DNA of 64,000 bases from an uncultured delta proteobacterium (GTDB lineage Bacteria; Myxococcota_A; Polyangia; Fen-1088). The stretch lies in NCBI GenBank assembly GCA_963737265.1, contig CAVTRY010000007.1, positions 160,001 to 224,000 of the forward strand, written 5' to 3'. The translations under genes and the position numbers were made by a program. The notes beneath the pieces were generated by a model that saw only the letters and a list, made by a program, of their open reading frames with translations, did no database searches and was not told where the DNA came from. Below, in pieces: positions 4,710 through 20,821 of this stretch. Positions within the stretch are counted from its first letter, which is position 1. Every line of letters starts with the position of its first letter.

Positions 4710-7287
4710 ATGATCAAACATCCCGATTTTCTCGAGGTCTTCTCCAGCGTAGCAACTCGGCGAAGCAATCACCTCGCGGTCGAGGCCGACGAGGGCACGT
4801 TCACCTATGCCGAGCTGGATCGGCTCTCAAACCAGGTGGCGAATCGCCTGCGCGCCCTGGGGGTAGACCGGGAAGCACGCGTGGGAATCTCGCTGCCCCG
4901 AGGAGCGCGCGAGCTGGTCGCCATGCTTGCGACGGCGAAGGCGGGTGGGGCTTACGTCCCCCTCAATCCGACTTATCCGGAAGAAAGGCTGCGCGGCATC
5001 ATCGACGAAGTCTCTCCCCAGGTCGTGGTGGTAGAGCCCGGATCTGCACTGGCCTTGGGTCATGAAGGGCAGATCCTTCTTTTCCCCAGCATCGAGGCCG
5101 CGGCAGCGGGGTTCCCGGCAACCGCACCAACCGTCAAATGCGATCCCGATCAGCTGGTGTACATCCTGTTTACCTCCGGCTCGAACCGGACGTCCCAAGG
5201 GTGTGGAAATCACACGCGCAGCGTTCTCGAATTTTCTCGGATCGATGATACGAAGTCCAGGCATGGCGGAGAACGAGCGCCTTCTCGCCATCACGACGAC
5301 CTCGTTCGATATCGCCGGTCTCGAGCTTTTCCTGCCGCTCTGTGTGGGCGCCACCGTCTCGATCGCGGATTACGAAACCGCGCGAGATCCGCGCAAGCTA
5401 CGTCGTCGCTTGGAAGGCGCCGACATCTCCGTGTTGCAGGCCACGCCCGCCACCTGGCGCCTGCTGCTCGAAGCGGGCTGGCTCGTCGACAGAAAACTTC
5501 GAATGCTTTGCGGTGGCGAAGCCTTGTCTCCCGCGCTCGCCGACCGCTTGTTGGCCGCCGATGGCGAGCTGTGGAATCTCTATGGCCCGACGGAGACGAC
5601 GGTGTGGTCGTCGCTCGAGCGGATTCGGCCGGACTACGATCGCATCACCATCGGCAAGCCCATCGATGAAACCGAGATCTACGTCCTCGACGAAGCGTTG
5701 AATTCCGTTCCCATCGGTCAGGAAGGCGAAATTTGGATTGGCGGTCGCGGCGTGGCGCGCGGCTATTGGCGCCGCCCTGACTTGACGGCCGACCGCTTCG
5801 TGGCTCGCCCGCACATCGCTCCCGACGACAGAATCTATCGCACGGGCGATCTCGGCCGGCTACGCCCGGACGGACGTTTCGAGTGCCTGGGCCGCCTGGA
5901 CCGCCAGGTGAAGATCAGCGGCAACCGCATCGAGCTCGGGGAAATCGAGACGGTTTTGCGTTCCGTGGCGGGCGTGGGCGAAGCCTTGGTCGTTGCCGAT
6001 CGACCCGAGGGCGGCGAGCCCCGTCTTGTCGCCTATTGGACCGGCCCGGCGCAACGGAAGGATATCGTCGAAGCGGCCCAGCGCAGCCTTCCGGCCTACA
6101 TGGTCCCGGCGGCCTACGTCCAGCTGCAAACCTTTCCACTCAACACGAATGGGAAGATCGATCACAAGGCTCTGCCCAAACCCGAGCTCGTGGAGCAGCC
6201 CAGGCTGCCAGCCGGACGCCAGGCTACAGAAATCGAAGCCCGCATTACCTCGGTTTGGGCGCAGGTTCTTGCCATGGCGCATGTTCCGCTCAACCAAAGT
6301 TTCTTCACTCTGGGTGGAACGTCGGCCCTGGCCATCGAGGCGGTTGCCGGCATCGAGAAAGAGCTGGGCGTCGAGCTACCCTTGCTGGCGTTCTTCGATG
6401 CGCCGACGGTGGAAGGCATCGCAGCCAACGTTGGCAAGTTCTTCTCTCCCGACGCGCCCATCGTCGCTCGGCTGCGCCAGGGACATCCGGAGCGAGAGCC
6501 TCTGTTCTGCCTCTTTGGTGTGACGCTTTACCAAGCCCTGGCCCTTGAGCTCGCCGAAGATCGTCTTGTGTTTGGCGTGCATATCCCATTTCGCTACGTG
6601 CCCGGGCGCGATCCGCGCCCCACGCTCCCGGAGATCGGCCGACGCTACGTGGATTTGATCCGAGAGCACCAGAGCCACGGTCCTTACCACATGCTCGGAC
6701 TGTGCTTCGGCGGCATCGTCGCCTACGAGGTGGCGCGCCAGTTGGAAGCCGCAGGAGAAACCGTGGCCACGGTCACCATCATCGATGCCGTCCTGCCCCA
6801 TGCTATTCACATCGACAAGCGCAGGCGCTTGCGCTCTCACATCGCGCGGGCGTGGAAGAATCCAGGCGACTTCGTCCGCTACGTGAACAAGAAGCTAAAG
6901 GAACGCTACCATGGTTCGTTCTTGCACGACCTCGTTCAGACCTTGCGCGCTCCCGCGGGTGTTCCGCCAGCCATCGATCTTCCCGTCGACGGGCCGGAGG
7001 TCGAGGCCGAGGTTCATCGTTTCGCCGCCCAGCCCAGCAAACTAGCGACGCGGGTGCTGGTCGTGTGTGCGACCGACGAACCCAGGCCGGGATGGACGAC
7101 CGTGTCGGCCGACGAAGGCTGGGGTGATCGTGCTGACTCCGTGGTCATCTGCAACGTTCCGGGAACCCATCTCGGTGTCCTGAAGGATCCTCATGTGCGC
7201 CTTCTCGCTCGTGCGATCACCGAGGGCTTTCACCCTCAGCCGCATTGCGACGAGACGCCCGACCCGGGTATGCACCTCACGGATTAA
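4710..7287 (+). CDS. Stand-alone NRPS module A-T-TE with a +1 frameshift near 5185
   Basis: A3 motif FTSGS/TGRPKG split by one extra A; NLYGPTE, YRTGD, NGKID; PCP 'FFTLGGTS'; TE 'GLCFGG' with His in 'PGTHLG'. Confidence 0.88.
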
Positions 7288-7996: not shown

Positions 7997-8825
7997 CTAT
8001 TTGTGTTGAAGCGTGCCGGCCACGAAGTGTACGTAGCTGGAAGCCAGGACACGCATACCGAGGGGACTCAGGTGGCCGCCGTCGCTCGAAGTAGTCGGCG
8101 AACAAAGCGGGCGTGGGCTGGCCATCGATGGGGTAGGTTTCGCGGGTTCCAGCGAGATCAGTCGATTCGACGCGGGCGATGTCGAAGATGGGCTCGTTCG
8201 CGAATTCCGTTCGTAGCAAGCGATTGAATTGCTCGCGCTTGGCATTGAGCAGGTCGGACTCGGGGCGCATGCCGAGGAGGCGCTTAATGCGGGTCTTGAT
8301 GCCTTGTTCCCGGATTCTCAGCGGCGCGGTTGCGTGGGCGATGATGACGGCAGGATGGCGCGCCTTGATGCGAGCAATGGCGTGCTTGTAGTAGTCGAAC
8401 AGATCCCGCACGTCCGTGTCGCGGGTGAAGTCGGAGTAGCAGAATTTCATCAGCGCAAGGTGAGGCGGATTCCCTTGTAGACTGTCCAGCGCTGCCTCGA
8501 ACCCGTCGATCTTGGTCTTGGGACTTCCGTTCTTGCCCGGCCGGGTCTCGATGATGCCCGGTCCGGACTGACTTTTGCCGGCGTCGAGATCCTCGATGGG
8601 CCAGGTCGTGCCTGCCTCCTCAAGGAGCTGGCGTAGGCCGTCGAGGATGTTGGCACCTACCGACTGGTGCGCGAAAAGCACGCGCAGCTTGCTCGCTGCC
8701 GCAATAGACTGCTTGCTTTCAGGAGGCATGGACTGCTCCATCGTTGGGGAAGCGCCGCCGGGTGGCGAGCACGCGGCAGACACGGCGCCCGCGCTCGCCG
8801 CCAGCACGGCCAGAACCTCCGTCAT
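7997..8825 (-). CDS. Putative SGNH/GDSL-like lipoprotein, frameshifted near 8090
   Basis: Signal/lipobox-like 'AVSAAC', 'FAHQSVG'; removing one T restores 'ADYSSDGGHL' (DxxH) in the 7997 frame. Confidence 0.55.
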
Positions 8826-8934
8826 TCGCCGACCTGTCATCTTGCAACCGCTAGGCTGGCAGGAGTTTACCGCCGCCGGCCCGGAAACGGTCAAGCGAGA
8901 TCGCGGGGCTGGGAATCACCATTTCGACGAAAGA

Positions 8935-9064
8935 AATGGTCGCAGTGGATCTTTCCAAACCGGCGTCGGTTATGCTATCTCTTCGCGACCTTCCCGGCCC
9001 GCCTGGGCCGAGAACCCGATGGCTCATTGGGACAATGCATCACAAAGGCGAGCATAACTAGGCT
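8935..9064 (+). pseudogene. Relic 3' tail of a tyrosine integrase from an older element
   Basis: Reads MVAVDLSKPASVMLSLRDLPG versus MVAVDLSKPAAVVLSLRDAPG at 19082-19144; strong DNA similarity; same position relative to the att repeat. Confidence 0.8.
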
Positions 9065-9117
9065 AAATTAAAAGATAATGGGCGCATAGCTCAATTGGTA
9101 GAGCAGCGGACTCTTAA
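9065..9117 (+). repeat. attL: 53-bp direct repeat, 15-bp leader plus 5' half of tRNA-Lys
   Basis: AAATTAAAAGATAATGGGCGCATAGCTCAATTGGTAGAGCAGCGGACTCTTAA is identical to 19212-19264. Confidence 0.92.
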
Positions 9118-9229
9118 GCCAGATGCTGCAATGAGCCCTGATTAGACCGAGCGCTCACGCCAAACAAAACGCGCGCTTACGGCAGCCAGAGACGCCGCAT
9201 GATAGCCAGGAGTTATCACCTGTGCGGGC

Positions 9230-9252
9230 CACTTGGGCAGAACATGGGCAGA
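9230..9252 (+). promoter_or_regulatory. Putative integrase arm-type binding sites
   Basis: CACTTGGGCAGAacaTGGGCAGA matches CACTTGGGCAGAgaaTAGGCAGA at 19146-19168 at the other end of the element. Confidence 0.55.
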
Positions 9253-9570
9253 GCCGGTGCGCCAAACAGAGCGCGATCAGGGTGATGGCCGAGCTCGCCG
9301 AAATGCGCCACGACCCCGGCTCGGACGTCGCCGGACTCGCCCCCGCCATCCACTCCATCTGCACGCAGGGCACCTGTAGCTTCTAGACCCCTTCTTGGCA
9401 GGTTGTAATGGGGTCCCAGGAATGCGCGCCCTCGCGGCACCGTGATCTCCTCGTGCGCGCCTTCCGACTCTGGTGCGCGCTGTGAGCGGGCACACGTGGC
9501 GCAGGCATTCCTCTGTCCCGGCTATCTCCAACGAAAGGAAACCGGATACAATGTCTTGCTGAGGCCGTCC

Positions 9571-10053
9571 ATGAAGGAAAAGGAGCTCCGCGAGCGTATC
9601 GAGCAGTTCTTGCGCAAGACGGCCCGCAATGTCGTGGTGCCCGCGTCGGTGGGCTTGGGGCTGAGCGTTTCCGGCTGCGATCAACATGCGTTGCACGCCA
9701 CGGCCGCCGATGCGGGGGGAGATTCGGCCGCGCAGGTCTCGGACGTGGCGAAGGTTTCGACCTCGGACGTTCCGCCGTCGGCGCCGGAGGTCGGGGATGC
9801 GACTTCTCCGAACGACCTTCCGCTCGTGGCCCCGCCCTATCTGCTGGTCGCGCTCCCGCCAGATGATGTTGCCCCCGACCAGACCCGTGACGTTGAATCC
9901 GAAGCCGGAACGCAAGGCCCGGACGCCGCGGCCGACGCCTACGTGCCGATACCTCCACTCATTTACGTCTTCTATATGCAGCGGGCAGAGACGGACGCCG
10001 CGGCCCCGCCCGACGCGGCGGCGATGCTTTCCGCCTCTCCAGAGAAGGCGTAG
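9571..10053 (+). CDS. Lipoprotein-like putative radical-SAM substrate/precursor
   Basis: Charged leader MKEKELRERIEQFLRK, hydrophobic stretch, lipobox-like VSGC, acidic low-complexity body with Pro-flanked Tyr motifs; ends 3 bp before the rSAM start. Confidence 0.6.
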   Translation: MKEKELRERIEQFLRKTARNVVVPASVGLGLSVSGCDQHALHATAADAGGDSAAQVSDVAKVSTSDVPPSAPEVGDATSPNDLPLVAPPYLLVALPPDDVAPDQTRDVESEAGTQGPDAAADAYVPIPPLIYVFYMQRAETDAAAPPDAAAMLSASPEKA

Positions 10054-10056
10054 CTG

Positions 10057-11029
10057 GTGCTCGAAGTATTCCGGCGAATCGGGTTCGTACCGCGCGCCTG
10101 CGGCTGGGAGAATCACCCTCCGGTGCAACATGGGCTGCCGGCACTGCGGCTCGCTGGCCGGACGAGCTCGCGACGACGAGCTATCACACGACGAATGCCT
10201 GCGCGTGGCAGACGAGCTGGTGCAGCTGCGCTGCGGGCGCGTGACCCTGACCGGCGGCGAGCCGACCTTGCGCCAGGACTGGGACGTGCTCGGCGAGCGC
10301 CTGGCCAGGCAGAAGGTTCGGGTGGCCATCCTTTCCAACGCGTGGACGTGGAGCCCACGCGACGCTGAACGAGCCGCACGCGCCGGTCTGTCCAGCGTGG
10401 GCTTCAGTCTCGATGGACTCGAGCGCGAGCACGACGACTTCCGCGGCTCCGGCTCGTTTCCACGCGTTCTTGCGGCACTGCGCACGGCGCGGGACGTGGG
10501 TCTCGAGTTTGGTGTCAACACCACCATCTATCGTGGCAATCGTCATCAGCTCGTGGCATTGCGCGATCTGCTCGTATCCGGGGGCGTGCGCTCATGGCAA
10601 CTGCAATACGCCGTTGCCACCGGCGCCATGGCCCGCCATCGCGAGCTGGTATTGCCGCCCGAGGATGTGCTGTGGTTGGTGCCGCAAATCGCCGAATTCT
10701 GCCGGGAGCGCAAGGGCGGCATGTACATCGTGGCGAGCGATCACATCGGCTACTACGGGCGGCCTGAAGGCCATCTGCGCCAGGCCGACGTCAGCATGCC
10801 CTTCTGGTTGGGGTGTTGGGCGGGCATGCAGGCGCTCGCCATCGAGAGCAACGGCGACGTGAAGGGCTGTCTCTCGCTGCCTTCGGCCCGCCATGGCGAG
10901 ACCCGCTTCATCGACGGCAACCTGCGCACCACCAGCTTGCGCGCCATCTGGAACCGCCCCGCGGGATTCGCGTACAACCGCGGCTTTCATCCCCAGCAGC
11001 TTCGCGGGTTCTGCCGCGTGTGCCGCTAC
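10057..11029 (+). pseudogene. Radical SAM/SPASM maturase (PlpX/TIGR03913-like), frameshift near 10110 and SPASM truncated at ~11029
   Basis: 'WE/ITLRCNMGCRHCGS', 'TGGEP', 'CWAG..AIESNGDVKGCLSLP', 'GFCRVCRY', then homology stops abruptly. Confidence 0.8.
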
Positions 11030-11967
11030 ACGGCCGCGACCGACGTCTTCGATGCCGTCGTTGCCCTCGCCGGCTGCGGCAACAGCGACAGAGGCGCCGT
11101 ATCCACCTTGGCGTTCGGAACAGCAGGCTCCGCCGTCCTCGCGACTGCGCTGGTTGCCGGCGTGGTCGTCTTGACCTCAGCAGGTGGAGTCGCCGCTGGC
11201 CCGCCGGCTCGAAGCCGAGGCCGGCCTTGGGGGCGACATCGTGCGTTCCTTGGCCACCGTTGGTGCGGCTGCACGTGGGATGGTGGCAGCGGCAACGGCT
11301 CGAGGCGCAGACGTGGCGGCGAAAGTCCGGACAGTCGTGCTCGGCGGGGACGGCGTTGCTCTTGCCATGGCCAGTGCCCTGACCGACGGGACTTCCTTGG
11401 ACTGGGCCGGCGTGGATGGCAGGGGCGTACGGCCCAGCTCCATCTTGTCGTGCAACGGACGTTCGTGGTCGGCGCTTCGCTGCTCATGCTCCGCGCGCAC
11501 CCTTTGCTCGACCTCTCTCCGCACCTCTTGCTCAACCTGCAGCCTGATCTCCTTCTGCATCTGGGCTCGCGCCTTCTCGCTCTCGCCCTTCAGCTCGTTG
11601 CCCAGGGTGACACGCAACTCCTGCTCGAGCGTCGCTCGCAGCTCCATGTCCCGCGCCGCGAGCCTGTCCGCCTCCCTTGGCGTGCTCGCAAGCTCGGCAT
11701 GCGCCTCTGCGCGGAGCCGCATTCAGGGCACCTCCGTCGAACGAGGCCGATCCATGCCAACACCGAGGCCAGCGCCAGCGAGCCAGGGCCAAGTCCCCAT
11801 CCACCCACCGGCGACCAATGGGGCAAGGCGTTCGAAGGGTCCTGCCCGAGGGTGAGGGACCAGAGTCCTCCGATGCCCCCGGCGAACGCTATCGCGGCAG
11901 GAATCACCGGCGCCACGGCCGGCTTTCCGATCCCCGAGATGGCTCTTTGACATCGTCTGCAACGCAT
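11026..11967 (-). pseudogene. Membrane protein with CxxC...CxxC, coiled coil and Pro/Ala-rich tail, broken over three frames
   Basis: MRCRRC-hydrophobic segments-CPECG frame, then an E/R-rich coiled-coil frame, then a P/A/T-rich frame. Confidence 0.5.
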
Positions 11968-12281
11968 GTGTCACCTATTAGGCTATTCCTCATCCGACCG
12001 GTCGGCGAGAAATGAAAAAGGCTTACCGCGGTAGGGTCGGGGCTCATGCGATGGAGCAGTCAAGGTCTACGGAGCGAGCCGACGTGAAAACGATCACGAC
12101 GGAGAAGGACCTTGCACGACGTGAACGAACGGCGTTTCCGTCGGACAGGTTCGCCCTCATGTTGTCAGATTTCTGAGACTCTGTGGTCTGCGAGGCTCGA
12201 CGAATGGCGGACCAGCCAAGGTCTCGCACCTCTCCGCGTTTGGACCATGGCTTGCTACGCTTTCACCCGAGGAGAAAGTTG

Positions 12282-13205
12282 ATGCGCTCACTTACAACCA
12301 AGGGTGGACTCGGATTGGCCGTCGCATTGTGCTTTGCCGGATGTCAGAAGGAGGGCCTGGCGACCGCTCCGGATTCTGGCGTCTCGCAGGGTGGCGTTGT
12401 CGCCGTGGGCGGCACGATCGGAACGGGCGGGGCAGGCGGACTACAGGGAACTGGTGGTGAGCCTGCAACGGGCGGAAACTCGGGTCAGGGCGGCTTGCCA
12501 GGTGGCGTTGGTGGTGCGTCCGCAACGGGCGGGAACGCCGGTCAGGGTGGTTTGCAAAGCGCCGCTGGTGGCACCACTGGAGCCGGCGGCCGGTCAGCTC
12601 TGGGTGGGGCGATCGGAACGGGAGGCACTGCTGGTGCCGGTGGTGCAGGAACCGGTCGCGATGCGAGCGCAGACGCAGGATGTCCGTCGGGCTGGACGAT
12701 TTGCTGTGGTCAGTGCCTCAGCCCTCTGGCGGGGATCTGCGTCGGGCCCTGCCCAGCAACGGGCGGGTCGGGCGCGGCTGGTGGCGTTCACAGCGCCGGT
12801 GGTACTAGCAGCGGTGCCGGCGGAAGCCTTGGCGGATTGGGGGGCGCACCGGGCGATGGCGGCGGTCAACCAACGGACGGTGGGCTGACCTGCGCGGATC
12901 TACAGGCTCTCTACGCTGAGGCCCTACCAGCGGCACGAAGCTGCGATGTCAATGCGAGCGTACAGTGCCAACAATTGGTCAGTTCATCTTTGTCGGTGTG
13001 CCCCGTCTGCACGACCCACGTGAACGACTCTTCAACCCTAACTACCATCAAGGCAAGGTGGGTGCAGGCCGGCTGCGATACATCTGTCGCGGTCCTTTGT
13101 CCAGAAATTGCCTGCGTCCAGCCAGGATCGAGCGTCTGCGTCACAGTCGACGGTGGTAGCGGTACGTGCAACGAGGTCTACCTCATCTTGCCAACAGAGC
13201 CGTGA
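12282..13205 (+). CDS. Myxobacterial-type Gly-rich, Cys-rich lipoprotein
   Basis: Lipobox 'CFAGC', GGxxGTGG linkers, two Cys-rich modules; RBS GAGGAG upstream. Confidence 0.7.
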   Translation: MRSLTTKGGLGLAVALCFAGCQKEGLATAPDSGVSQGGVVAVGGTIGTGGAGGLQGTGGEPATGGNSGQGGLPGGVGGASATGGNAGQGGLQSAAGGTTGAGGRSALGGAIGTGGTAGAGGAGTGRDASADAGCPSGWTICCGQCLSPLAGICVGPCPATGGSGAAGGVHSAGGTSSGAGGSLGGLGGAPGDGGGQPTDGGLTCADLQALYAEALPAARSCDVNASVQCQQLVSSSLSVCPVCTTHVNDSSTLTTIKARWVQAGCDTSVAVLCPEIACVQPGSSVCVTVDGGSGTCNEVYLILPTEP

Positions 13206-13498
13206 AACTACGACCGCCCATTCGCACCGTCGCGATCCAAATCCCAGCCCTCGCCATCCACGAGGCCGACGCCATCATCGACTTGCTCGGACAGCTCCAG
13301 GGCGCCCTGTGGGACTCCTACGGCGCCGCCATCGTCGATCGCAAACTGAGGCAGCTCCCTTTGTCGCGAACCAAGCCAGCAGTCCCTCCGACCCACCCTC
13401 CGACCCCAGCGACGACAACACGCCCTTCTGATTTGCGCCCGGCCAGACACCTGCCGCGACGACGGTCACGCCTCGGGCCGGCGGGCTCTACCATGTAG
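13202..13498 (+). CDS. Small hypothetical protein, possibly a transposon accessory gene remnant
   Basis: GTGA overlap with the upstream stop; helical 'IIDLLGQLQGALWDSYG' segment. Confidence 0.35.
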   Translation: MKLRPPIRTVAIQIPALAIHEADAIIDLLGQLQGALWDSYGAAIVDRKLRQLPLSRTKPAVPPTHPPTPATTTRPSDLRPARHLPRRRSRLGPAGSTM

Positions 13499-13681
13499 GG
13501 CTCTCGGCCGGAGAGCAATGGCTTGGTGAAGCAGGCGGGGGCGCGGTTGGCGAACCTGCTGAACGCGGCTTTCAAATGATTCGCGACCGGCGGACGCCGA
13601 GGTGCCCCACACCCACCGCGCCACTTTGCTCCGGCACGGAGGGCGCCACTGCTTTCTTGGCGGCAGCTATACTTGCCGCCC

Positions 13682-14389
13682 ATGTGCGGCCGGATGACCT
13701 TAACAAGCAGCGATTTGGGACAAGTTCTCGGCGAGCTGAAGGAAGCACTCGGAAGCGCGGGCGTGTGGCCCATTTCGGCCGACGACGATGCGGCCTCGCT
13801 GTTTCGGCCGCGCTACAATGTCGCACCGACACAGCTTCACCCGGTCTTACGCCGCCTGCGAGACCACGCGAACCTGGGCTTCGCCAGTTGGGGCGTTCTG
13901 GCGCGTGGACTAGGCAAGCCACCCGCCATCAATGCACGCGCCGAGACCGTATCGGTCAAGCCTGCCTTCAAAGACGCCTTGGCAACCAGACGGTGCGTGA
14001 TCCCGGCGGATGGTTTTTTCGAGTGGAAGTCGGGCCCGGACGGCCGTCAGCCGCTGTGGTTCCACCGACCTGATGGCAAGCTGATTTTGCTGGCCGGGCT
14101 CTTCGAGGAAGGCATGGCGACGGGAAACGAACCAGTGCGCGCGCGCTTCGTCGTTCTGACGACGTCGCCCAATGCCCTCATGGCCCCGGTTCACAATCGG
14201 ATGCCGGCGCTGCTGTCCCCGTCGGAGGCAGCGGACTGGCTGGCGGAACCGACGGTGAAGGTGCTGCACCCAGCGCCTGATGAGCTGCTCGTCGCAACAC
14301 CAGTTTCCACGCGGGTGAATTCGCCTCGGCACGACAATCCGGCTTGCCTGGGTCCACCTCGAGGCGTGCAGATGCGCCTTTTCGAGTAG
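13682..14389 (+). CDS. SOS response-associated peptidase (SRAP/YedK/HMCES family)
   Basis: N-terminal MCGR, 'RYNVAPTQ', 'INARAET', 'RCVIPADGFFEW', 'HNRMP'. Confidence 0.93.
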   Translation: MCGRMTLTSSDLGQVLGELKEALGSAGVWPISADDDAASLFRPRYNVAPTQLHPVLRRLRDHANLGFASWGVLARGLGKPPAINARAETVSVKPAFKDALATRRCVIPADGFFEWKSGPDGRQPLWFHRPDGKLILLAGLFEEGMATGNEPVRARFVVLTTSPNALMAPVHNRMPALLSPSEAADWLAEPTVKVLHPAPDELLVATPVSTRVNSPRHDNPACLGPPRGVQMRLFE

Positions 14390-14509
14390 TTGGCGAGCTT
14401 GAGGACGTTGACGGCGCCGCGCAAACAGGCGGCTAAATCACGGGCGGCGACCGGCGCGTCCGAAAAGCATCCAATCTTGGAACGCGCAAGTCCTCACAGC
14501 CATCCTCCC

Positions 14510-15313
14510 ATGCCATTCCCAACACGTAAACCTTGTCCGTCATCGACCCACTGGGGCCGCTGGGAAATATGTTCGGCCATCATCGCTGGCCTGGCGTTGC
14601 CGTTCCTCGTTGCTTGCCGCCATGACACCAGCAGTCTGTTTCCGCTTGCGGTCGGATTCCAGCCGCTAGAACCCAGCACAGCGCCGCTACCCGCCCCAGT
14701 CACAGGCGACGCTTATCCGGAAGTGCAGACCTCAGTCACAGGAAACCGAGATGGCCACGACTGGGCACATTCCCAGGCATACGTCCACGCAGCGCTATCC
14801 GATGTCTGGACCGCCATGCAACTCCCGACGGTCTGTCATATTCACGGCACCAACTCGTGGACCGTGCAGGACGTGGGCTCCGAGCCGTTCCCCATGAGCT
14901 TCGTCATTCACTACAGCGCCGGCCCGTCGTTCTATTCGGTCGAATGGGAAGACACCTACCGCGGCGGAGTGCTCGCTGGAACGACCGACGCTCCTGCCGC
15001 CTATGGCATGCGTGGCCAGAAGACTTGGGGCACCACCTTCGTAACACTGCAGTCGATCTCGGTCGGAGCTCGGCCCGTCCAGGGAGAAAGCAGCGTGGCT
15101 GCACTTGAGATGGTTGGCTGGCTCAACGCCACGGACTCGGGTCAATCGGATGCCGCTGGGATGCTGTCGGACTTCTACCAAGGCCTTGTCGCCCAGATTC
15201 ACGGCGGAGCTGATGTTGGTGCGGCTGGGACGGACGGTGGCGCTATCGAGGTGGGCAGCGTGGATACCGGCACAGAGGAATCACCGCCTGGCGACAGCAT
15301 TTCGCAACCATAG
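14510..15313 (+). CDS. Hypothetical lipoprotein
   Basis: Hydrophobic segment ending in 'LVAC'; ~267 aa open frame. Confidence 0.55.
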   Translation: MPFPTRKPCPSSTHWGRWEICSAIIAGLALPFLVACRHDTSSLFPLAVGFQPLEPSTAPLPAPVTGDAYPEVQTSVTGNRDGHDWAHSQAYVHAALSDVWTAMQLPTVCHIHGTNSWTVQDVGSEPFPMSFVIHYSAGPSFYSVEWEDTYRGGVLAGTTDAPAAYGMRGQKTWGTTFVTLQSISVGARPVQGESSVAALEMVGWLNATDSGQSDAAGMLSDFYQGLVAQIHGGADVGAAGTDGGAIEVGSVDTGTEESPPGDSISQP

Positions 15314-15497
15314 ACCAACTCGGCAGCGAGCTGGTCGGAACCTCGCTCATGGGCCGACTTCAGCCCGCGTTCGTCGGGAAGATCTGGATTCGGCATTCCA
15401 TCCGAAGCGATGCCGAGGATTTTCGCGATCACTGCCAGCAGCGACCTACCATTCGACATTCGACTGCCTCCCGTCTGCGAAGTACAATCCCCGTGAA

Positions 15498-15689
15498 ATG
15501 TTCTCTGAACACCTCGCCAAGATTGAAACCACACTCCGGCACAGCACCAGTATTCCGGAGGCCACTCGACAGGAATTGCTCGACCTCGTGGCTGCGTTAA
15601 GGACGGAGGCGACGCCGTTGCTGGCGACGCACGGCGAGTCAGCGCGTGAAATTGCGGACAGCGCGGAAGCTGCGGTACAGGCATTGTAA
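15498..15689 (+). pseudogene. Truncated DUF4404-like helical protein
   Basis: 'HLAKIETTLRHSTSIPEATRQELLDLVAALRTE..THGESAREIA' ends early at an AT-rich junction. Confidence 0.45.
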
Positions 15690-15744
15690 AGTTTATTTAT
15701 TTACAGCGCCTAACCAGCCGAGCGGCGCGCACCTGGTTGTCCAC

Positions 15745-15831
15745 AAGGAGCCAACGATCTTCAAGGCCAAGCCAGCTCGCATGGTGATCAAGGGACGCCC
15801 TGTGAAAGCGGCCAAAGATGCTGTCGCGTAG
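15745..15831 (+). pseudogene. C-terminal fragment of an HU-family DNA-binding protein
   Basis: 'KEPTIFKAKPARMVIKGRPVKAAKDAVA*' resembles the HU arm/C-terminus; no N-terminus present. Confidence 0.5.
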
Positions 15832-15904
15832 GCACCGACCAGCGGCTTGGCCGAGTACGAAGATGCTATCGCCCCCGAGGTTCGATGGCACCTTCGGGGC
15901 CTCT

Positions 15905-16309
15905 ATGGGCCAGTACAACAGTTCCATCACGCGCGTACGCCCCGTGTTTCAGTCGCTCTTCACCCGAGACCCGACTGCGTCATCCTGGCTCCCCGCGCTT
16001 CTTCGCCTGACAGGACGGGATACCTACGGCGCGCTGCTTGCTGAGAAACCGGGCGTACCGCCGCCGTGGCTGTGGCGGAAGCGGTCCTTCGGCGCGATTG
16101 ACCTTGAGGCTTGCTTTGAGCACAGCCTGCCGCCGCCAGAGCCTTTTCTCCGGTGGCTGATTGAGCATCCGGAGAGAATGCAGGTGCCTACTCCCGAAGA
16201 ACTAATGCGGCTTGGTGAAGATACTCGTCGACCACTGCACGCCCCCATGCGCAAGGGGAAGCACACTTTTGGCGAACGGAGAGAGAAGGATGCAGATTGT
16301 GGCGGTTGA
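15905..16309 (+). CDS. Hypothetical protein, probably C-terminally truncated
   Basis: MGQYNSSITRVRPVF...LPPPEPFLRWLIEHP looks globular, then degrades. Confidence 0.35.
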   Translation: MGQYNSSITRVRPVFQSLFTRDPTASSWLPALLRLTGRDTYGALLAEKPGVPPPWLWRKRSFGAIDLEACFEHSLPPPEPFLRWLIEHPERMQVPTPEELMRLGEDTRRPLHAPMRKGKHTFGERREKDADCGG

Positions 16310-17169
16310 TGCCTTGTCTCGTCCCTCTACTGTTCTTGTCAGCAGTCTCGCCAACGCCCGATGGCGGCGTGCCTGACGCCTCGGCAGCCCAGTCTGGGGT
16401 GCAAGGGTTTGACTTGCGTTGGAGTCACGTCACGACACCGAAGCCGGGCCGGTCTCGCTCCATCGGTCAGCCAGGAGCGGGTTGCTTGCAGGGGGCGGTT
16501 TCCTTGCCCTTGCACGGCCCAGGCTGGATGGTCATGCACCCTGAACGGCATCGCGAGTTCGGCCACCCGGCGCTGGTGGCCTATCTACGCGATCTCGCGT
16601 CCAGCACGCGTCGCCACCACCTGGGCCTCCTGTGCGTGGGCGATCTCGGCCAGGCCCGCGGCGGGCCTATGCCAACCGGTCATCGCAGTCACCAGACTGG
16701 GCTCGACCTCGATGTCTGGTATGCAGCACCGGCCAAGCCACGCTTGTCGGGCAAAGCGCCCGTGCCGCCCGAGGTGGTCGACCTGCGCACCGGCAAGCTG
16801 CTGCCCACCTGGAACAGCCGCGTGGCGCGCCTGATCGAGACCGCAGCCTCCGATGCGGCCGTGGACCGCATCTTCGTTCATCCGGCCATCAAGCGCGCAC
16901 TTTGCAAGGACAAAAGTCGGGCTGGTGCGTGGCTGCAGCGGGTGCGGCCCTGGTGGGGGCACCACGACCACCTGCACGTGCGCCTGCGATGTCCTACTGA
17001 TAACCCCGATTGCAAGGAGCCGCAGCCCTTGCCCACCGGTGAAGGCTGTGATGCCTCGCTCGACTGGTGGTTCTCCGACGATGCGCGCGCCACCGCGGCC
17101 AAGCGCAGTCCACCCGGCGAGGGCGCCCCTCCCATGCCAGAGCAGTGTGAGTCAGTCCTTGAGCACTGA
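16309..17169 (+). CDS. mepA: Penicillin-insensitive murein endopeptidase
   Basis: 'GHP', 'GDLGQARGG', 'HRSHQTGLDLD', 'RPWWGHHDHLHVRLRCP'. Confidence 0.9.
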   Translation: MPCLVPLLFLSAVSPTPDGGVPDASAAQSGVQGFDLRWSHVTTPKPGRSRSIGQPGAGCLQGAVSLPLHGPGWMVMHPERHREFGHPALVAYLRDLASSTRRHHLGLLCVGDLGQARGGPMPTGHRSHQTGLDLDVWYAAPAKPRLSGKAPVPPEVVDLRTGKLLPTWNSRVARLIETAASDAAVDRIFVHPAIKRALCKDKSRAGAWLQRVRPWWGHHDHLHVRLRCPTDNPDCKEPQPLPTGEGCDASLDWWFSDDARATAAKRSPPGEGAPPMPEQCESVLEH

Positions 17170-17479
17170 CAGCGCAACACCTACGCGGCAGTTGCGTCGG
17201 TAAACAGCGCCGCCGCATCCTCGGCGCCAAGGTGCTTCAGGTAGTGTCCGAGTGCTCCACGGAAAAACTCCATGCGGTTCTTGATGCCGCGCGCGCGCCA
17301 CGCCTAGTCCAGCTTGTCGACCACTGCGGCCTCCATGTGCAGGGGCCTCACAGGCGACCTGCCTATCGGCTCACCACTGCAAAACGGTGTCCAGCATCTC
17401 GTACAGGCCCCCGAGGCTCTTCGAACGACCGCAGGAAATTCCGTGCACCCATCGCCCGCAGCGGCCAAGATTGCGGGCC

Positions 17480-18187
17480 GTGGACCGGCTTCGCACCCAT
17501 CGACGAAGGTTTCTTGCAGGCACGGCTGGAGCAGGGGCACTGCTGATCTGCCGGGGAATGGCCAGCGCGAAGCCTGCTACTTCCGAGAAGGATAACGGTG
17601 GCGACATCTCCCCGACCGAAGACCTCATGCGCGAGCACGGCGTCGTTCGTCGCCTTCTACTCGTGTACCAGGAGGCAGTGCCTCTCATCGCGACCGGCGA
17701 CGTGCCCGCTTTGCGCGTGGTCACCGGTGCGGCGGACATCATTCATCGCTTCGTCGAGGGTTATCACGAAAGGCTGGAGGAGGAGTTTGTCTTCCCCAAG
17801 CTGGAGAAGGCTGGAAAGCTGGTCGAGCTGACCAAGGTGCTTCGGGTCCAGCACTCGGTGGGACGAAAGCTCACCGACTCGATTGTCAGGGTGGCGAGAA
17901 TTGGAAAAGCAGCCACGGCCGAGCAGCGTCGGGCCGTGGTTCTCGACATCCAGGCCTTCCGGCGCATGTACGAGCCCCACGCGGCCTGGGAAGACACCGA
18001 GCTGTTCCCAGTCTATCGGGGCGAGTTCACCGAGGCGGAATTCGACAAGCTGGGTGATCGATTCGAAGAGCAGGAGCATAAGCTTCTCGGTAGCGGCGGT
18101 TTCGCGGGAACACTGAAGGAGGTGGGTGACCTCGAGCAGGCGCTAGGTATCCACGATCTTGCAAAGTTCACAGCTGCTTCGAAGTGA
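17480..18187 (+). CDS. Hemerythrin-domain protein with Tat-like signal
   Basis: 'RRRFL' Tat motif; 'EDLMREHG', 'YHERLEEEFVFP', 'HAAWEDTELFP'. Confidence 0.82.
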   Translation: MDRLRTHRRRFLAGTAGAGALLICRGMASAKPATSEKDNGGDISPTEDLMREHGVVRRLLLVYQEAVPLIATGDVPALRVVTGAADIIHRFVEGYHERLEEEFVFPKLEKAGKLVELTKVLRVQHSVGRKLTDSIVRVARIGKAATAEQRRAVVLDIQAFRRMYEPHAAWEDTELFPVYRGEFTEAEFDKLGDRFEEQEHKLLGSGGFAGTLKEVGDLEQALGIHDLAKFTAASK

Positions 18188-18190
18188 GAG

Positions 18191-18373
18191 CTGACAGAAA
18201 TCGCGGCGCTTCGCCGCGCCGTCGGAGCTGATAGCGTTTTCGCTGCATCTAAGCGTCTCGGCATATCGCCTCACACGTTGGAGCGAGCCCTGGCTGGCGT
18301 TGGACTGCGGAAAGGCACTGCCCTTCAGATTCGACTCTCGCTGGAGCTGCAGCAGAACGGCGACGCCCAATGA
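18191..18373 (+). pseudogene. 5'-truncated small HTH-like protein (not in the ORF track)
   Basis: Open frame 'AASKRLGISPHTLERALAG' ending at TGA 18371-18373; no start codon. Confidence 0.4.
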
Positions 18374-18437
18374 CCCTCTTGGATTCTGAGTCCGCGCTGG
18401 CGCTGCTCCCGGCTTCGATCGAGCGACTGGAGCTCCC

Positions 18438-18740
18438 ATGAGCGTCGAGGATGCGATCAGCGGTGCCGTTGCCGTGGCCGTGGCGCCCATGCTCGAAGAG
18501 CTGCGCGCATTACGAGCCACCGTCGACGCACTCCGAGCCGGGTCCCCATCCCGGCTCGCCACCGTGGCCGAGCTGGTCCGCCTAGGCTACGGGTCACCCG
18601 CGAGCGTGCGACGACGAATCGCAGATGGCACGTACCCTGCGAGAAGGCACGGGAGAAGTATCAGGATCGATCTGGCCGCGCTCAAGCCCCCGACGCCCGA
18701 GTTCGTCGTTGAGCTCGCCGACAAAGCGAGGCGCAGGTGA
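18438..18740 (+). CDS. Excisionase-like HTH protein
   Basis: 'TVAELVRLGYGSPASVRRRIADGTYPARRHGRSIRID'; overlaps the integrase start. Confidence 0.65.
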   Translation: MSVEDAISGAVAVAVAPMLEELRALRATVDALRAGSPSRLATVAELVRLGYGSPASVRRRIADGTYPARRHGRSIRIDLAALKPPTPEFVVELADKARRR

Positions 18741-19204
18741 GCGACATCGACCTAGGAAGGGCCGAGGAAGGATTGACTGGAGGCGTCGGACAACTCTTCA
18801 GGCCGACGTGCACATCACGCGGCGGGCGGCCCGACATCGGAAGTCCAGCCCAGTTCATCCGCCCCATCACCGTGCACAAGGCGCTTGCGAAAGCGCTGGT
18901 GGCTTGCGAGCTGCCCAAGATGACCCTGTACCAATGCACGCGTCACACGTTCGCTTCACAGTGGGTCATGAACGGCGGCAACCTGGAAGTGCTCGCCAAG
19001 ATCATGGGCCATTCCTCCACGTCCACGACCCAGCACTATGCTCACCTTGCCCCGGATTTTTTCGGGGCCAAGGCGTTCGATATGGTTGCAGTGGATCTTT
19101 CCAAACCGGCAGCGGTTGTGCTATCTCTTCGCGACGCTCCCGGTACACTTGGGCAGAGAATAGGCAGAACGCATCGAGACACCGCGGAGAAACAACTAGC
19201 ATAA
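18737..19204 (+). pseudogene. Tyrosine integrase, internally deleted (C-terminal catalytic part only)
   Basis: 'TRHTFASQWVMNGGNLEVLAKIMGHSSTSTTQHYAHL' retains the box II R, H and Y; only 155 aa. Confidence 0.85.
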
Positions 19205-19211
19205 GTACGCG

Positions 19212-19264
19212 AAATTAAAAGATAATGGGCGCATAGCTCAATTGGTAGAGCAGCGGACTCTTAA
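19212..19264 (+). repeat. attR copy of the 53-bp repeat, forming the 5' half of the intact tRNA
   Basis: Identical to 9065-9117; begins just after the integrase stop. Confidence 0.92.
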
Positions 19265-19299
19265 TCCGTTTGTTGTAGGTTCGATTCCTACTGTGCCCA
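19227..19299 (+). tRNA. tRNA-Lys (anticodon CTT), CCA not encoded
   Basis: Acceptor stem GGGCGCA/TGTGCCC, D arm, anticodon arm GCGGA-CTCTTAA-TCCGT, T arm GTAGG-TTCGATT-CCTAC. Confidence 0.97.
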
Positions 19300-19300
19300 C

Positions 19301-19893
19301 GATTGAATCAGGAACCCTGGAAGGGTTCCTGTAACCTCCCGCGACGAGCTCCGCCGAGCTAGGCTCGGCTTCGCTCACGCGATTGAGGAATCAGGAACCC
19401 TGGAAGTCCTGTAACCTCCCGCGACGAGCTCCGCCGAGCTAGGCTCGGCTTCGCTCACGCGATTGAGGAATCAGGAACCCTGGAAGTCCTGTAACCTCCC
19501 GCGACGAGCTCCGCCGAGCTAGGCTCGGCTTCGCTCACGCGATTGAGGAATCAGGAACCCTGGAAGTCCTGTAACCTCCCGCGACGAGCTCCGCCGAGCT
19601 AGGCTCGGCTTCGCTCACGCGATTGAGGAATCAGGAACCCTGGAAGTCCTGTAACCTCCCGCGACGAGCTCCGCCGAGCTAGGCTCGGCTTCGCTCACGC
19701 GATTGAGGAATCAGGAACCCTTGGAGGGTTCCTGAGGGTTCCTGTAACCTCCCGCGACGAGCTCCGCCGAGCTAGGCTCGGCTTCGCTCACGCGATTGAG
19801 GAATCAGGAACCCTTGGAGGGTTCCTGAGGGTTCCTGTAACCTCCCGCGACGAGCTCCGCCGAGCTGGGCTCAACTTCGCTCACGCGATTGAA
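19301..19893 (+). repeat. Tandem array of 7 double-hairpin units (5 x 80 bp, 2 x 93 bp)
   Basis: Units start at 19301, 19381, 19461, 19541, 19621, 19701 and 19794; no unique spacers. Confidence 0.95.
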
Positions 19894-19945
19894 AGGACTT
19901 ACGCCATGGACCGCTATGGTCCGGCAAGTAGCTACTTCGGTCAGC

Positions 19946-20821
19946 TCACTCGACAAAGACCTGAGCAAGGGTCGCGAGTAGATAGGCCACCGAGACGTAG
20001 CCGTTCAGGTTGAAGAAGGCCAGGTTGAGGCGCGACAGGTCGGACGGTCGGACGATGGCGTGCTCGTAGGTGAAAATGGCGACCACCACGGCCACGCCTA
20101 GAAAGTAGATGACGCCGAGGCTGGCCGCTCGCCCCGCGGCCATCAGGGCCACGGCCGTACCAGCGTGCATGACCGCGGAGATAGCGAGAGAGGCCCGGAC
20201 GCCGAAGCGGGCAGGAATGGAATAAATCCCCGACTTGCGATCGAAATCGCGGTCAGCCAGAGCATAAAGAATGTCGAAACCGCCGATCCAGGTGGCCACG
20301 GCAATCACCAGCCAGACTGCCGGCGCGGCCAGCTCGCCGCGCACCGCAATCCATGCGCCCGCGGGCGCGACGCCGATGGCCAGCCCAAGAAAGAGATGGC
20401 ACAGCCAGGTGAATCGCTTGGTGAAGGAGTACCCCAGAACCAGCACCAGGACCAAGGGCGAAAGAACCAGGCAAAGCTTCCCCAGACTGGCCGCGGCAGC
20501 CACGAAGACGACGGCGCTGGTGGCGGTCAGCACGCTGGCAGCCAACAAGGAAACCCTGCCCGTCGGAATTTCGCGACCGGCAGTGCGCGGATTTTTTCCG
20601 TCGAAGGCGCGGTCGGCGATTCGGTTGAAACCCATCGCGGCGGTGCGAGCACCGGCCATGGCCACGAGGATCGCCACCACCTGAACGGCGGTGATGCTAT
20701 GCCCGCGCGCGGCGATGGCGGTGGCGGCAAGCGCGAACGGTAAGGCAAACACCGTATGGCTGAATTTCACCATACGGCCAAAAGTGACAATCGCGCTGAC
20801 AAACGATCGGTCGGTTTCCAT
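19946..20821 (-). CDS. UbiA-family prenyltransferase (MqnP-like)
   Basis: 'KFSHTVFALPFA', 'FNRIADRAFDGKNPRTAGREIP', 'YSFTKRFT', 'FDILYALAD'. Confidence 0.92.
   Translation of the reverse strand: METDRSFVSAIVTFGRMVKFSHTVFALPFALAATAIAARGHSITAVQVVAILVAMAGARTAAMGFNRIADRAFDGKNPRTAGREIPTGRVSLLAASVLTATSAVVFVAAAASLGKLCLVLSPLVLVLVLGYSFTKRFTWLCHLFLGLAIGVAPAGAWIAVRGELAAPAVWLVIAVATWIGGFDILYALADRDFDRKSGIYSIPARFGVRASLAISAVMHAGTAVALMAAGRAASLGVIYFLGVAVVVAIFTYEHAIVRPSDLSRLNLAFFNLNGYVSVAYLLATLAQVFVE

Follow-up and report, generated by a model that had tools for sequence, protein, structure and literature searches.

A probable fossil integrative element at the anticodon loop of a single-copy tRNA-Lys(CTT) gene

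A direct repeat ending at the anticodon loop

The window, a 64-kb stretch of DNA from an uncultured Myxococcota bacterium, contains a single tRNA gene detected by ARAGORN, tRNA-Lys(CTT) on the + strand at 19227-19300 (Rfam score of 75 bits), and an Rfam scan of 8800-20000 revealed nothing besides this tRNA above threshold. The gene count asked for by the original prediction gave one copy: no other gene in the genome has this anticodon. A repeat finder identified a 70-nt repeat pair (9051-9120 and 19198-19267, 94% identity), within which base-by-base reading delimits an exact 53-bp direct repeat (9065-9117 and 19212-19264) comprising a 15-nt leader followed by nt 1-38 of tRNA-Lys(CTT). The final 7 nt of the repeat are the anticodon loop CTCTTAA and the repeat ends at the 3' edge of the loop, exactly as originally predicted. 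Within the window there are exactly two copies of the 38-nt tRNA part (two matches in 0 of 100 shuffles), while a 3' fragment of tRNA-Lys was found nowhere in the genome. An 80-nt tandem array lies downstream of the tRNA gene. The features of the locus are as follows:

8927..9064, + strand: probable decayed integrase C-terminal tail of an older same-family element (old attR P arm), displaced leftwards (85% DNA identity, 8933-9014 versus 19079-19160)
9065..9117, + strand: left direct repeat, probable attL (left crossover junction), with leader and displaced tRNA nt 1-38 (9080-9117)
9118..18437, no strand assigned: interior cargo, with the rSAM, SRAP, M74 and hemerythrin genes below and other, unassigned ORFs (Pfam)
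9225..9252, + strand: two candidate P' arm-type sites (TGGGCAGA words), 108-135 nt past the crossover (repeat finder)
within ORF 9686-11950: radical SAM/SPASM region (Pfam)
13673-14389: SRAP peptidase (Pfam)
16297-17169: M74 murein endopeptidase (Pfam)
17387-18187: hemerythrin-domain protein (Pfam)
18438..18740, + strand: AlpA/Xis-like HTH_17 gene (Pfam HTH_17, E 0.0049, below the gathering score)
18737..19204, + strand: integrase remnant, retaining ~142 C-terminal aa and a short 'DIDLGR' piece (Pfam; alignment to the G012 relative)
19141..19168, + strand: candidate P arm-type sites (TTGGGCAGA and TAGGCAGA), within integrase codons GTLGQRIGR, 59-86 nt before tRNA nt 1
19212..19264, + strand: right direct repeat, probable attR (right crossover junction), with element-borne leader and tRNA nt 1-38
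19227..19300, + strand: intact tRNA-Lys(CTT), probably rebuilt, with nt 39-74 and the downstream flank native (ARAGORN, Rfam, UbiA synteny with L033)

Homology between the two copies continues upstream of the repeat into the C-terminal coding tail of an integrase, and tblastn with this tail matches 8933-9040; the arm-site words are degenerate in this left tail on reading the sequence. The interval between the repeats measures 10,147 bp, with the integrase remnant at its right end and the integrase stop codon 22 nt before tRNA nt 1.

A decayed integrase and its candidate arm-type sites

The remnant is a 155-aa ORF with 75% identity to a full-length integrase of G012 (open frame of 450 aa; 426 aa counted from the first start codon). 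It lacks ~240 N-terminal and ~38 internal residues, and its Pfam match is limited to the last 40 positions of Phage_integrase (PF00589, profile positions 130-169 only), scoring 36.5 bits against a gathering score of 27.1, compared with 47-74 bits for full-length relatives. The catalytic set is incomplete: by alignment, RHTFAS keeps its RH and HYAHL its Tyr, and the GH is also retained, but the region bearing the first Arg (GLRTGE) and the Lys is missing. No intact integrase of the clade was found in the source genome, where the open frames of its members measure 55-201 aa. Judged by its sequence, the window copy appears to be an inactive remnant and the element a fossil. When the 426-aa G012 ORF was used to query a phage collection, the best matches were generic integrases of 26-30% identity and no close characterised relative was present; phage Mx8, whose host is a myxobacterium, was not among the best 15 of 237 matching phage records.

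The original prediction placed a xis-int pair before the tRNA. An integrase remnant does lie there, but the putative xis is an AlpA-like HTH_17 gene that probably owes its position to a deletion. Its product shares 81% identity over 64 aa with the HTH_17 protein of the intact G001 element, in which the gene directly precedes a primase-helicase gene. In the intact element L050, 4.4 kb separate int from HTH_17, which is followed by the primase gene, and the adjacency seen in the window therefore likely reflects loss of the intervening DNA.

Candidate arm-type sites were found on both sides of the core. A 12-nt word, CACTTGGGCAGA, is common to the P' and P arms and was reached by none of 200 shuffles. 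The segment 9087-9259 and the left end of the intact G012 element share 76% identity. Reading by eye at 42 loci showed a paired repeat at the arm position in the integrase tail, with either this motif or a different one. We compared the 200 nt before the tRNA with the 300 nt after the far crossover in seven elements, with 200 shuffles each. In four of the seven, direct words are shared between P positions -81 to -78 and P' positions +113 to +117, and the Gly-CCC element bears a different, co-varying word pair. The longest shared word exceeded all 200 shuffles in three elements and was borderline in two others (reached by 22 and 45 of 200 shuffles), while the remaining two have no exact shared words, only imperfect ones by eye. 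With arm words flanking the core on both sides and varying by lineage, the sequences point to a heterobivalent, lambda-like attP, in effect the classical layout with the tRNA half flipped. Beside the loop, the P' side resembles the 3' strand of the anticodon stem only loosely (0-3 nt of extra identity), too little for us to propose symmetric core sites. Two short motifs, CTAGCCTAAGT (Leu-Ala-stop) and TTGAAATT, are conserved before the tRNA; as a guess, they could represent a -10-like element or an IHF-type site.

Relatives and known systems

Homologues of the integrase fragment are present in 17 of the 41 genomes searched (G000 counted). Among 27 loci from relatives, 19 have a downstream tRNA on the same strand, with a gap of -23 to +26 nt between the integrase stop and tRNA nt 1 in 17 of them, while four others run towards a tRNA from its 3' side and the last four contain no tRNA. 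Among the 80 Myxococcota loci of a wider set, which partly overlaps the first, 35 have a same-strand tRNA at a gap of -23 to +23; all these counts come from kin genomes and are not independent samples. Counted by anticodon, the targets include at least 16 different tRNA genes, and the hosts are Myxococcota.

Full-length integrases fill the position of the remnant in six relatives. All six full-length same-strand loci tested (Arg-TCG, Arg-ACG, Thr-CGT, Val-CAC, Gly-CCC and Arg-CCT) carry a 5' fragment of their own tRNA 6.5-12.3 kb upstream. The identity starts at ~nt 1 and ends 0 to 3 nt past the 3' edge of the anticodon loop. The homologue search that the original prediction had proposed thus upholds its claim of a rarer 5'-type family, with full-length integrases pointing into tRNA 5' ends and crossover at the anticodon loop. 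The leader is present in the window's repeat, as predicted, but is not a general feature: with native left flanks, identity begins at ~nt 1, and its repetition here would come only from the left copy having been the right end of a related, older element. The intact elements encode HTH_17, a Toprim/D5_N or DnaB-like primase-helicase, AAA_25 and HTH_3, a gene set typical of small integrative elements.

According to textbook accounts, elements that insert into tRNA genes carry the 3' part, so that the tRNA gene keeps its own promoter. The opposite mode is already catalogued in Islander (Hudson, Lau & Williams 2015, PMC4383910), where 159 of 3919 islands have a 5' fragment and 3760 a 3' fragment; on this basis the window element is of a rare but known type. 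It bears the signature of that class, with a full tRNA gene, a cognate and co-oriented 5' fragment upstream, an integrase gene inside an interval whose length falls within the 2-200 kb allowed, and a crossover centred on the anticodon. The portions of PMC4383910 that deal with this class give counts, without integrase clade, attP anatomy or taxon. Klebsiella islands with integrases of clade I.d also integrate upstream of their target, the arg2 tRNA gene, unlike all other islands found in that work (bioRxiv 10.1101/2020.11.02.365908); the sections describing them report a D-loop sublocation, a gammaproteobacterial host and one named target tRNA, whereas the elements described here have an anticodon-loop crossover, Myxococcota hosts and their wide range of target tRNAs. 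A literature search on 5'-end tRNA integration returned nothing specific.

Classical 3'-type tRNA integrases, of the anticodon-loop and T-loop kinds, also have members in this integrase clade, L047 (Leu-CAA) and L038 (Ser-GCT), with full-length identity of 42-52%. In these, as in the window, the integrase 3' end adjoins a tRNA-derived segment; arm words lie in the integrase tail and ~120-140 nt past the crossover, and the displaced fragments are 13.5 and 14.3 kb away. However, in their attP the tRNA segment is the 3' part, inverted relative to int, which leaves the gene its native promoter, whereas here it is the 5' part, in the same orientation as int, with displacement of the native promoter. 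The attP also overlaps integrase coding sequence, as in the Mx8/SSV type, where the integrase gene runs across attP (PMC4383910), but only arm-type sites lie inside the ORF. The stop codon precedes the crossover, being always upstream of the anticodon loop in the window and in the 17 and 35 same-strand loci with the short gaps given above, and integration would therefore neither split nor alter the integrase.

Origin of the locus and consequences for tRNA expression

An unoccupied site is found in L033, a member of the same genus, with the order tRNA-Arg, a 64-nt spacer holding the promoter-like TTGACT-17-CATACA, tRNA-Lys, UbiA and a further gene. L033 UbiA has 77% identity to window 19953-20785 and the next gene 84%, while in the window the upstream DNA seen in L033 is swapped for an integrase tail and leader. 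This comparison supports the earlier proposal that the tRNA has been cut off from its native promoter. The left flanks of intact elements contain -35/-10-like pairs on reading by eye (for example, TTGACA-17-TATCTG and TTGACG-17-TAGGAA), and a sigma-70 consensus scan of 8700-9500 and 18400-19950 returned no promoter-like and no terminator-like sites. Integrase tails lie upstream of 7 of the 52 tRNA genes of the source genome. A crude -35/-10 score did not separate these seven (mean 7.6) from the other 45 (mean 6.3) and was dropped, as it also missed promoters readable by eye. The original prediction suggested that a need for a promoter could explain why the integrase tail survives in both copies. 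This may fit tails beside live tRNA genes, but does not account for the left copy, which appears to be a displaced old attR.

We considered whether the att-like ends are real but enclose 10 kb of trapped chromosomal or mixed DNA, brought together by homologous recombination between integrase-tail/tRNA modules of different tRNA loci or by later insertions and deletions, rather than one arriving element. The interior (9260-18437) has no DNA similarity to the six intact elements, is absent as a collinear block from 12 of 12 congeneric genomes and could be a mosaic, with rSAM, SRAP, MepA and hemerythrin genes that look like housekeeping genes and parts that match scattered congener contigs. Near-identical tails at several tRNA loci (80 nt identical between Lys-CTT and Gly-CCC in the source genome) would be substrates for recombination, and tRNA-Arg(TCG), which adjoins tRNA-Lys in L033 and L035, is on a different contig here. 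Island cargo is normally variable and non-syntenic, however, so that the interior fits an island equally well; moreover, the left end has P' arm sites at the canonical distance within its match to the intact G012 end, and an element-type HTH_17 gene persists. We consider trapping unlikely.

Still less probable is a local duplication of an integrase-tail and tRNA unit, or an assembly artefact, with the half tRNA a decaying pseudogene unrelated to site-specific recombination. The upstream tail is indeed copied together with the tRNA part, and among contigs of four thin runs compared with 8600-19700 (short contigs, depth ~2-5 at best; chosen from 16 runs, none of them recorded as RNA) no listed contig spans either junction with 31 nt on both sides; these contigs likewise show no element-skipping (excised) joint, at a cover too thin to weigh this. 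Yet identity stops at the edge of the anticodon loop, as it does in six independent elements of other genomes, the distance from the break to the arm sites is that typical of the family, and tail copies of 85% identity beside a tRNA part of 100% better fit two different elements. An assembly artefact in particular appears very unlikely, because six other genomes show the identical layout. Barely credible is an ordinary 3'-type island misread, with the element downstream of the tRNA and the upstream integrase from something else: the clade has 3'-type members and the tandem array follows the tRNA, but the genome lacks a tRNA-Lys 3' fragment, the downstream flank is syntenic with the congener's unoccupied site and the sole fragment is a 5' fragment lying upstream.

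The repeat anatomy, the layout across the family, the arm repeats, the congener's unoccupied site and the integrase decay lead us to conclude with high confidence that 9118-19264 is a fossil integrative element of ~10.1 kb, inserted into the anticodon loop of tRNA-Lys(CTT) by a heterobivalent tyrosine integrase. Its attP would have run from the integrase 3' coding tail with two arm-type sites through the stop codon, a 22-nt AT-rich leader and tRNA nt 1-38 to a crossover within the 7-nt anticodon loop, followed by a spacer of ~110 nt and two further arm-type sites. Integration would have joined the element's tRNA 5' half to the native 3' half, pushing the former 5' half and its upstream DNA to the far (left) end. 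Since this displaced DNA appears to be the tail of an older same-family element, we infer two integrations in series. Later deletions probably wrecked the integrase and thereby fixed the element in place. The original native upstream region would now be gone from the genome, such that transcription of the single-copy tRNA-Lys(CTT) would depend on element-derived upstream DNA.

What is new is the link between the minority 5' mode and a defined integrase clade, which has intact members, an attP that can be read and sisters of the classical type; this makes it testable what sets the orientation of integration and how a 3'-type element becomes a 5'-type one. Annotation pipelines that expect 3' fragments alone will miss such islands. 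For the host, the lasting cost or effect is single-copy tRNA genes with integrase-tail upstream regions. Tentatively, 5'-type elements of this myxobacterial lineage might act as a ratchet that rewires tRNA genes, the promoter being swapped, loss of the native copy locking the host in and the integrase tail with its arm sites being kept as a tRNA control region, as at the seven tail-bearing genes. Element-derived DNA would in that case drive tRNA supply, which resident or incoming integrases bound to the arm sites could perhaps modulate, while the displaced native tRNA promoter would fire into the far end of the element and could drive element genes.

Repetition of the tRNA-Lys(CTT) 5' half and decay of its integrase

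The sole tRNA gene that ARAGORN detects in the window is tRNA-Lys(CTT) on the plus strand (19227-19300; Rfam, 75 bits). The repeat finder pairs 9051-9120 with 19198-19267 (70 nt, 94% identity) and, directly upstream, 8933-9014 with 19079-19160 (85% identity). Base-by-base reading revealed an exact 53-bp block inside the 70-nt pair (9065-9117 and 19212-19264) composed of a 15-nt leader and tRNA nucleotides 1-38, the final seven bases being the anticodon loop CTCTTAA. The window contains exactly two copies of the 38-nt tRNA part (two matches in 0 of 100 shuffles), and a whole-genome search found neither a third copy of it nor a 3' fragment of tRNA-Lys(CTT). The repeat and the intact tRNA had been described correctly to the base in the original prediction. 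Beginning 5 nt past the tRNA, an 80-nt tandem array (19305-19892, 6.2 copies, 94% match, no matching Rfam family) passes into 93-nt units; its unit is a copy of the post-tRNA hairpin GGAACCCTGGAAG..TCC with a stretch resembling the last tRNA bases, and the corresponding place in the congener locus L033 holds just two such hairpins.

The ORF upstream of the tRNA (18737-19204, 155 aa) matched the Pfam integrase model over its last 40 positions only. Alignment with full-length relatives showed that the C-terminal ~142 residues and a short 'DIDLGR' piece are kept, while ~240 N-terminal and ~38 internal residues, including the first catalytic Arg and Lys, are missing; as judged from this alignment, the integrase gene is dead. 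The neighboring ORF (18438-18740) has a weak Pfam match to HTH_17, and its product shares 81% identity with the HTH_17 protein of L050, the locus of an intact element in the related genome G001. The two genes are adjacent in the window, as had been seen, but they do not represent a native xis next to int: since in L050 the HTH_17 gene immediately precedes the primase-helicase gene, 4.4 kb from int, the adjacency is by this comparison a deletion scar.

Integrase relatives and the tRNA ends they address

Homologues of the integrase fragment were found in 17 of the 41 related genomes searched, the window's own counted. For 27 loci drawn from the relatives, we noted the tRNA and the gap from integrase stop to tRNA. 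A wider scan gave 80 loci, 79 of them from Myxococcota-type MAG records (with titles such as Myxococcales, Anaeromyxobacter, Labilithrix, Polyangia and Archangiaceae) and one (L130) from a record titled Rickettsiales.

Position of tRNA genes at integrase loci. The two sets overlap in part and the genomes are kin, so counts are descriptive only.
Relatives, same-strand downstream tRNA, close: 17/27 loci, gap -23 to +26 nt
Relatives, same-strand downstream tRNA, further: 2/27 loci, gaps 77 and 792 nt
Relatives, converging on tRNA 3' end: 4/27 loci, gap -1 to 10 nt
Relatives, no tRNA in the ±1.5-kb locus: 4/27 loci
Wider scan, same-strand tRNA: 35/80 loci, gap -23 to +23 nt
Wider scan, same-strand tRNA further away: 5/80 loci, 78-830 nt
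Wider scan, converging tRNA: 4/80 loci, three at -1 to 17 nt, one at 815 nt
Wider scan, no tRNA within 1 kb, or room too short: 33/80 loci
Wider scan, integrase running off the contig: 2/80 loci
Wider scan, no C-terminal match: 1/80 loci

For six full-length same-strand cases, we searched each genome with its own tRNA plus 100 nt upstream. A 5' fragment of the same tRNA lies 6.5-12.3 kb further upstream in all six (Arg-TCG in G012, Arg-ACG in G002, Thr-CGT in G001, Val-CAC in G010, and Gly-CCC and Arg-CCT in G008), and identity at the junctions runs from about nucleotide 1 (-3 to +4) to the 3' edge of the anticodon loop, with 0-3 extra bases. Thus, the expectation that full-length homologues point into tRNA 5' ends, with 5' fragments at the far boundary, held in every case tested (6/6). 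Among the genes of these elements are those for HTH_17, Toprim/D5_N or DnaB-like primase-helicase, AAA_25 and HTH_3 proteins, the gene set of a small integrative element.

The family has left traces across the window's own genome, in which a homologous integrase tail, the Leu-Ala-stop motif and a short AT-rich leader immediately precede, on the same strand, 7 of 52 tRNA genes (Lys-CTT, Arg-TCG, Arg-TCT, Arg-CCT, Leu-TAG, Gly-CCC and His-GTG). Protein search matched open frames of 55-201 aa at six of these loci, and the His-GTG tail matched at the DNA level only. A displaced 5' fragment of the Arg-TCG gene itself lies 1.8 kb upstream of it, broken in the anticodon loop; this copy (C2:54820-54963), an integrase tail with tRNA nucleotides 1-34, is more diverged (83%). 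At the Leu-TAG fossil, the last 290 nt are 90-100% identical to a full-length gene of another species, with nothing further upstream. Tail deletions beside a single-copy tRNA are presumably harmful, and the proposal that tails survive through promoter need fits the live tRNAs but not the displaced left copy. Elsewhere, a 106-nt copy of the 85 nt preceding tRNA-Arg(CCG) and of just the first ~10-20 nt of the gene (C23:325454-325558), 4.4 kb upstream of the gene at C23:329878, has no integrase-tail homology and may represent another kind of 5' duplication, of the D-arm type.

Two of the converging loci were examined for displaced fragments, and both have the classical layout, in which the element supplies the 3' part of the tRNA (3'-type, as opposed to 5'-type). 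A 3' fragment of tRNA-Ser(GCT) in G009 (nucleotides 64-92) lies 13.5 kb downstream, and one of tRNA-Leu(CAA) in G008 (nucleotide 29 to the end plus 17 nt) 14.3 kb downstream. In a quick tree of 60 integrases (SH-aLRT support only, midpoint root), at least four changes between the two layouts are needed, and the Ser-GCT 3'-type integrase groups with two Gly-CCC 5'-type integrases as their sister, at a support of 100. A single gene, tRNA-Val(CAC) of G010 (C17:204846-204918), appears from its fragments to have been used by both integration modes: it bears a 5'-type element with the fragment 7.5 kb upstream, and a 3' fragment (nucleotides 30-69, 100% identical) lies 70 kb downstream.

Candidate arm-type sites in the integrase tail

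We searched each element for words shared between the 200 nt before the rebuilt tRNA (P) and the 300 nt past the far crossover (P'), with 200 shuffles. Direct words common to both sides occur at matching places.

Candidate arm words by element.
Window: word CACTTGGGCAGA, P -81, P' +113, 0/200 shuffles
G012: 15-mer, P -79, P' +114, 0/200 shuffles
G008 Arg-CCT: 20-mer, P -78, P' +117, 0/200 shuffles
G001: 9-mer, P -79, P' +116, 22/200 shuffles
G008 Gly-CCC: different word pair, P -73/-63, P' +133/+143, 45/200 shuffles
G002: imperfect similarity by eye, longest exact word at chance level (194/200 shuffles)
G010: imperfect similarity by eye, longest exact word at chance level (191/200 shuffles)

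The candidate arm sites of the window form pair D4 of the repeat finder:
19141-19168, P, within the last integrase codons (GTLGQRIGR)
9225-9252, P'

When 42 loci are aligned on the tRNA start, the P position always shows, by eye, two direct words ~11 nt apart, which vary among lineages. Read from sequence, the layout of arm sites, ~100-120 nt, core, ~115 nt and arm sites is that of a heterobivalent integrase site. Because the integrase stop codon precedes the tRNA, integration leaves the integrase gene unsplit, whereas a split is reported for Mx8 and SSV (both mentioned in PMC4383910). The 80 nt of integrase tail with the arm sites (19094-19173) are identical to the tail upstream of tRNA-Gly(CCC) on contig C11 of the same genome, and the leader and tRNA parts behind them differ between the two loci, which hints that a tRNA-specific spacer might be exchangeable behind one arm module.

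The 3'-type Leu(CAA) element has the word AAGCCACC.ACTGGCAACAGA in its integrase tail and again ~120-140 nt past the far crossover, the same arm-word geometry as in the 5'-type. As the anticodon loop is close to the gene's midpoint, an arm-to-core spacer of ~60 bp could hold either tRNA half, and the two types would differ only in the reading direction of the target gene relative to a fixed attP frame.

Promoter, history and precedents

The congener locus L033 is ordered int-tail remnant, tRNA-Arg(TCG), a 64-nt spacer with TTGACT-17-CATACA, tRNA-Lys(CTT), UbiA and a next gene. Its UbiA shares 77% identity with window 19953-20785, and the gene after it 84%; by this synteny L033 is an unoccupied tRNA-Lys site with the window's right flank. 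The window no longer has the spacer and tRNA-Arg at this position, tRNA-Arg(TCG) lies on another contig, and the genome contains no further tRNA-Lys 5' fragment beyond the 9080-9117 copy. In the relatives, -35/-10-like pairs (for example TTGACA-17-TATCTG and TTGACG-17-TAGGAA, by eye) adjoin the displaced fragments in the left flanks of intact elements. These pairs and L033 together indicate that the native promoter travels with the displaced fragment, supporting the claim that the tRNA is cut off from it; with that promoter displaced, the rebuilt gene must, by the same comparison, owe its transcription to element DNA or to read-through. A consensus scan found no promoter before the rebuilt tRNA-Lys, and our own -35/-10 score was uninformative.

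In elements with native left flanks, identity begins at nucleotide 1 without a shared leader. For the window locus we infer that an older family element would have integrated first, of which the tail (8927-9064, with degenerate arm words), leader and 5' half alone would survive. A second element would then have integrated into the rebuilt gene, so that the repeat here includes 15 nt of leader, and would later have lost its replication genes along with most of the integrase. The interior has no similarity to the six intact elements and no collinear counterpart in 12 congeners, and thus may be cargo or, as the main rival reading, a later mosaic.

Several features lie in or beside this interior. 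At 11212, contigs of two public runs are one base shorter than the window, and the radical SAM/SPASM ORF (9686-11950) has an implausible Arg-rich C-terminal half, so that a one-base error of assembly or a true frameshift may be present at this point. The segments 15745-15832 and 17176-17347 match many scattered congener places at 78-90%, and have contig depth far above their surroundings in two metagenome runs; they may represent dispersed repeats of small size or non-coding elements under conservation. A non-ribosomal peptide synthetase-like ORF (5062-7287; adenylation, carrier and thioesterase-like, by eye) lies to the left of the old integrase tail.

In the literature searched and the phage collection, with Islander compared by counts only, we found no description of this myxobacterial integrase clade, of arm sites inside an integrase tail, or of a clade in which 5' and 3' types are paired. 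Of the 3919 islands in the Islander table (PMC4383910), 3760 have a 3' fragment and 159 a 5' fragment, and the Islander filters explicitly admit an upstream 5' fragment; a Klebsiella preprint describes an integrase clade with islands upstream of a tRNA-Arg gene at a D-loop sublocation (10.1101/2020.11.02.365908). The feature in the window is real and its 5'-type interpretation is supported overall. Islands with 5' fragments are a known, rare kind, to which the window element is newly added, with an unusually clear anatomy.
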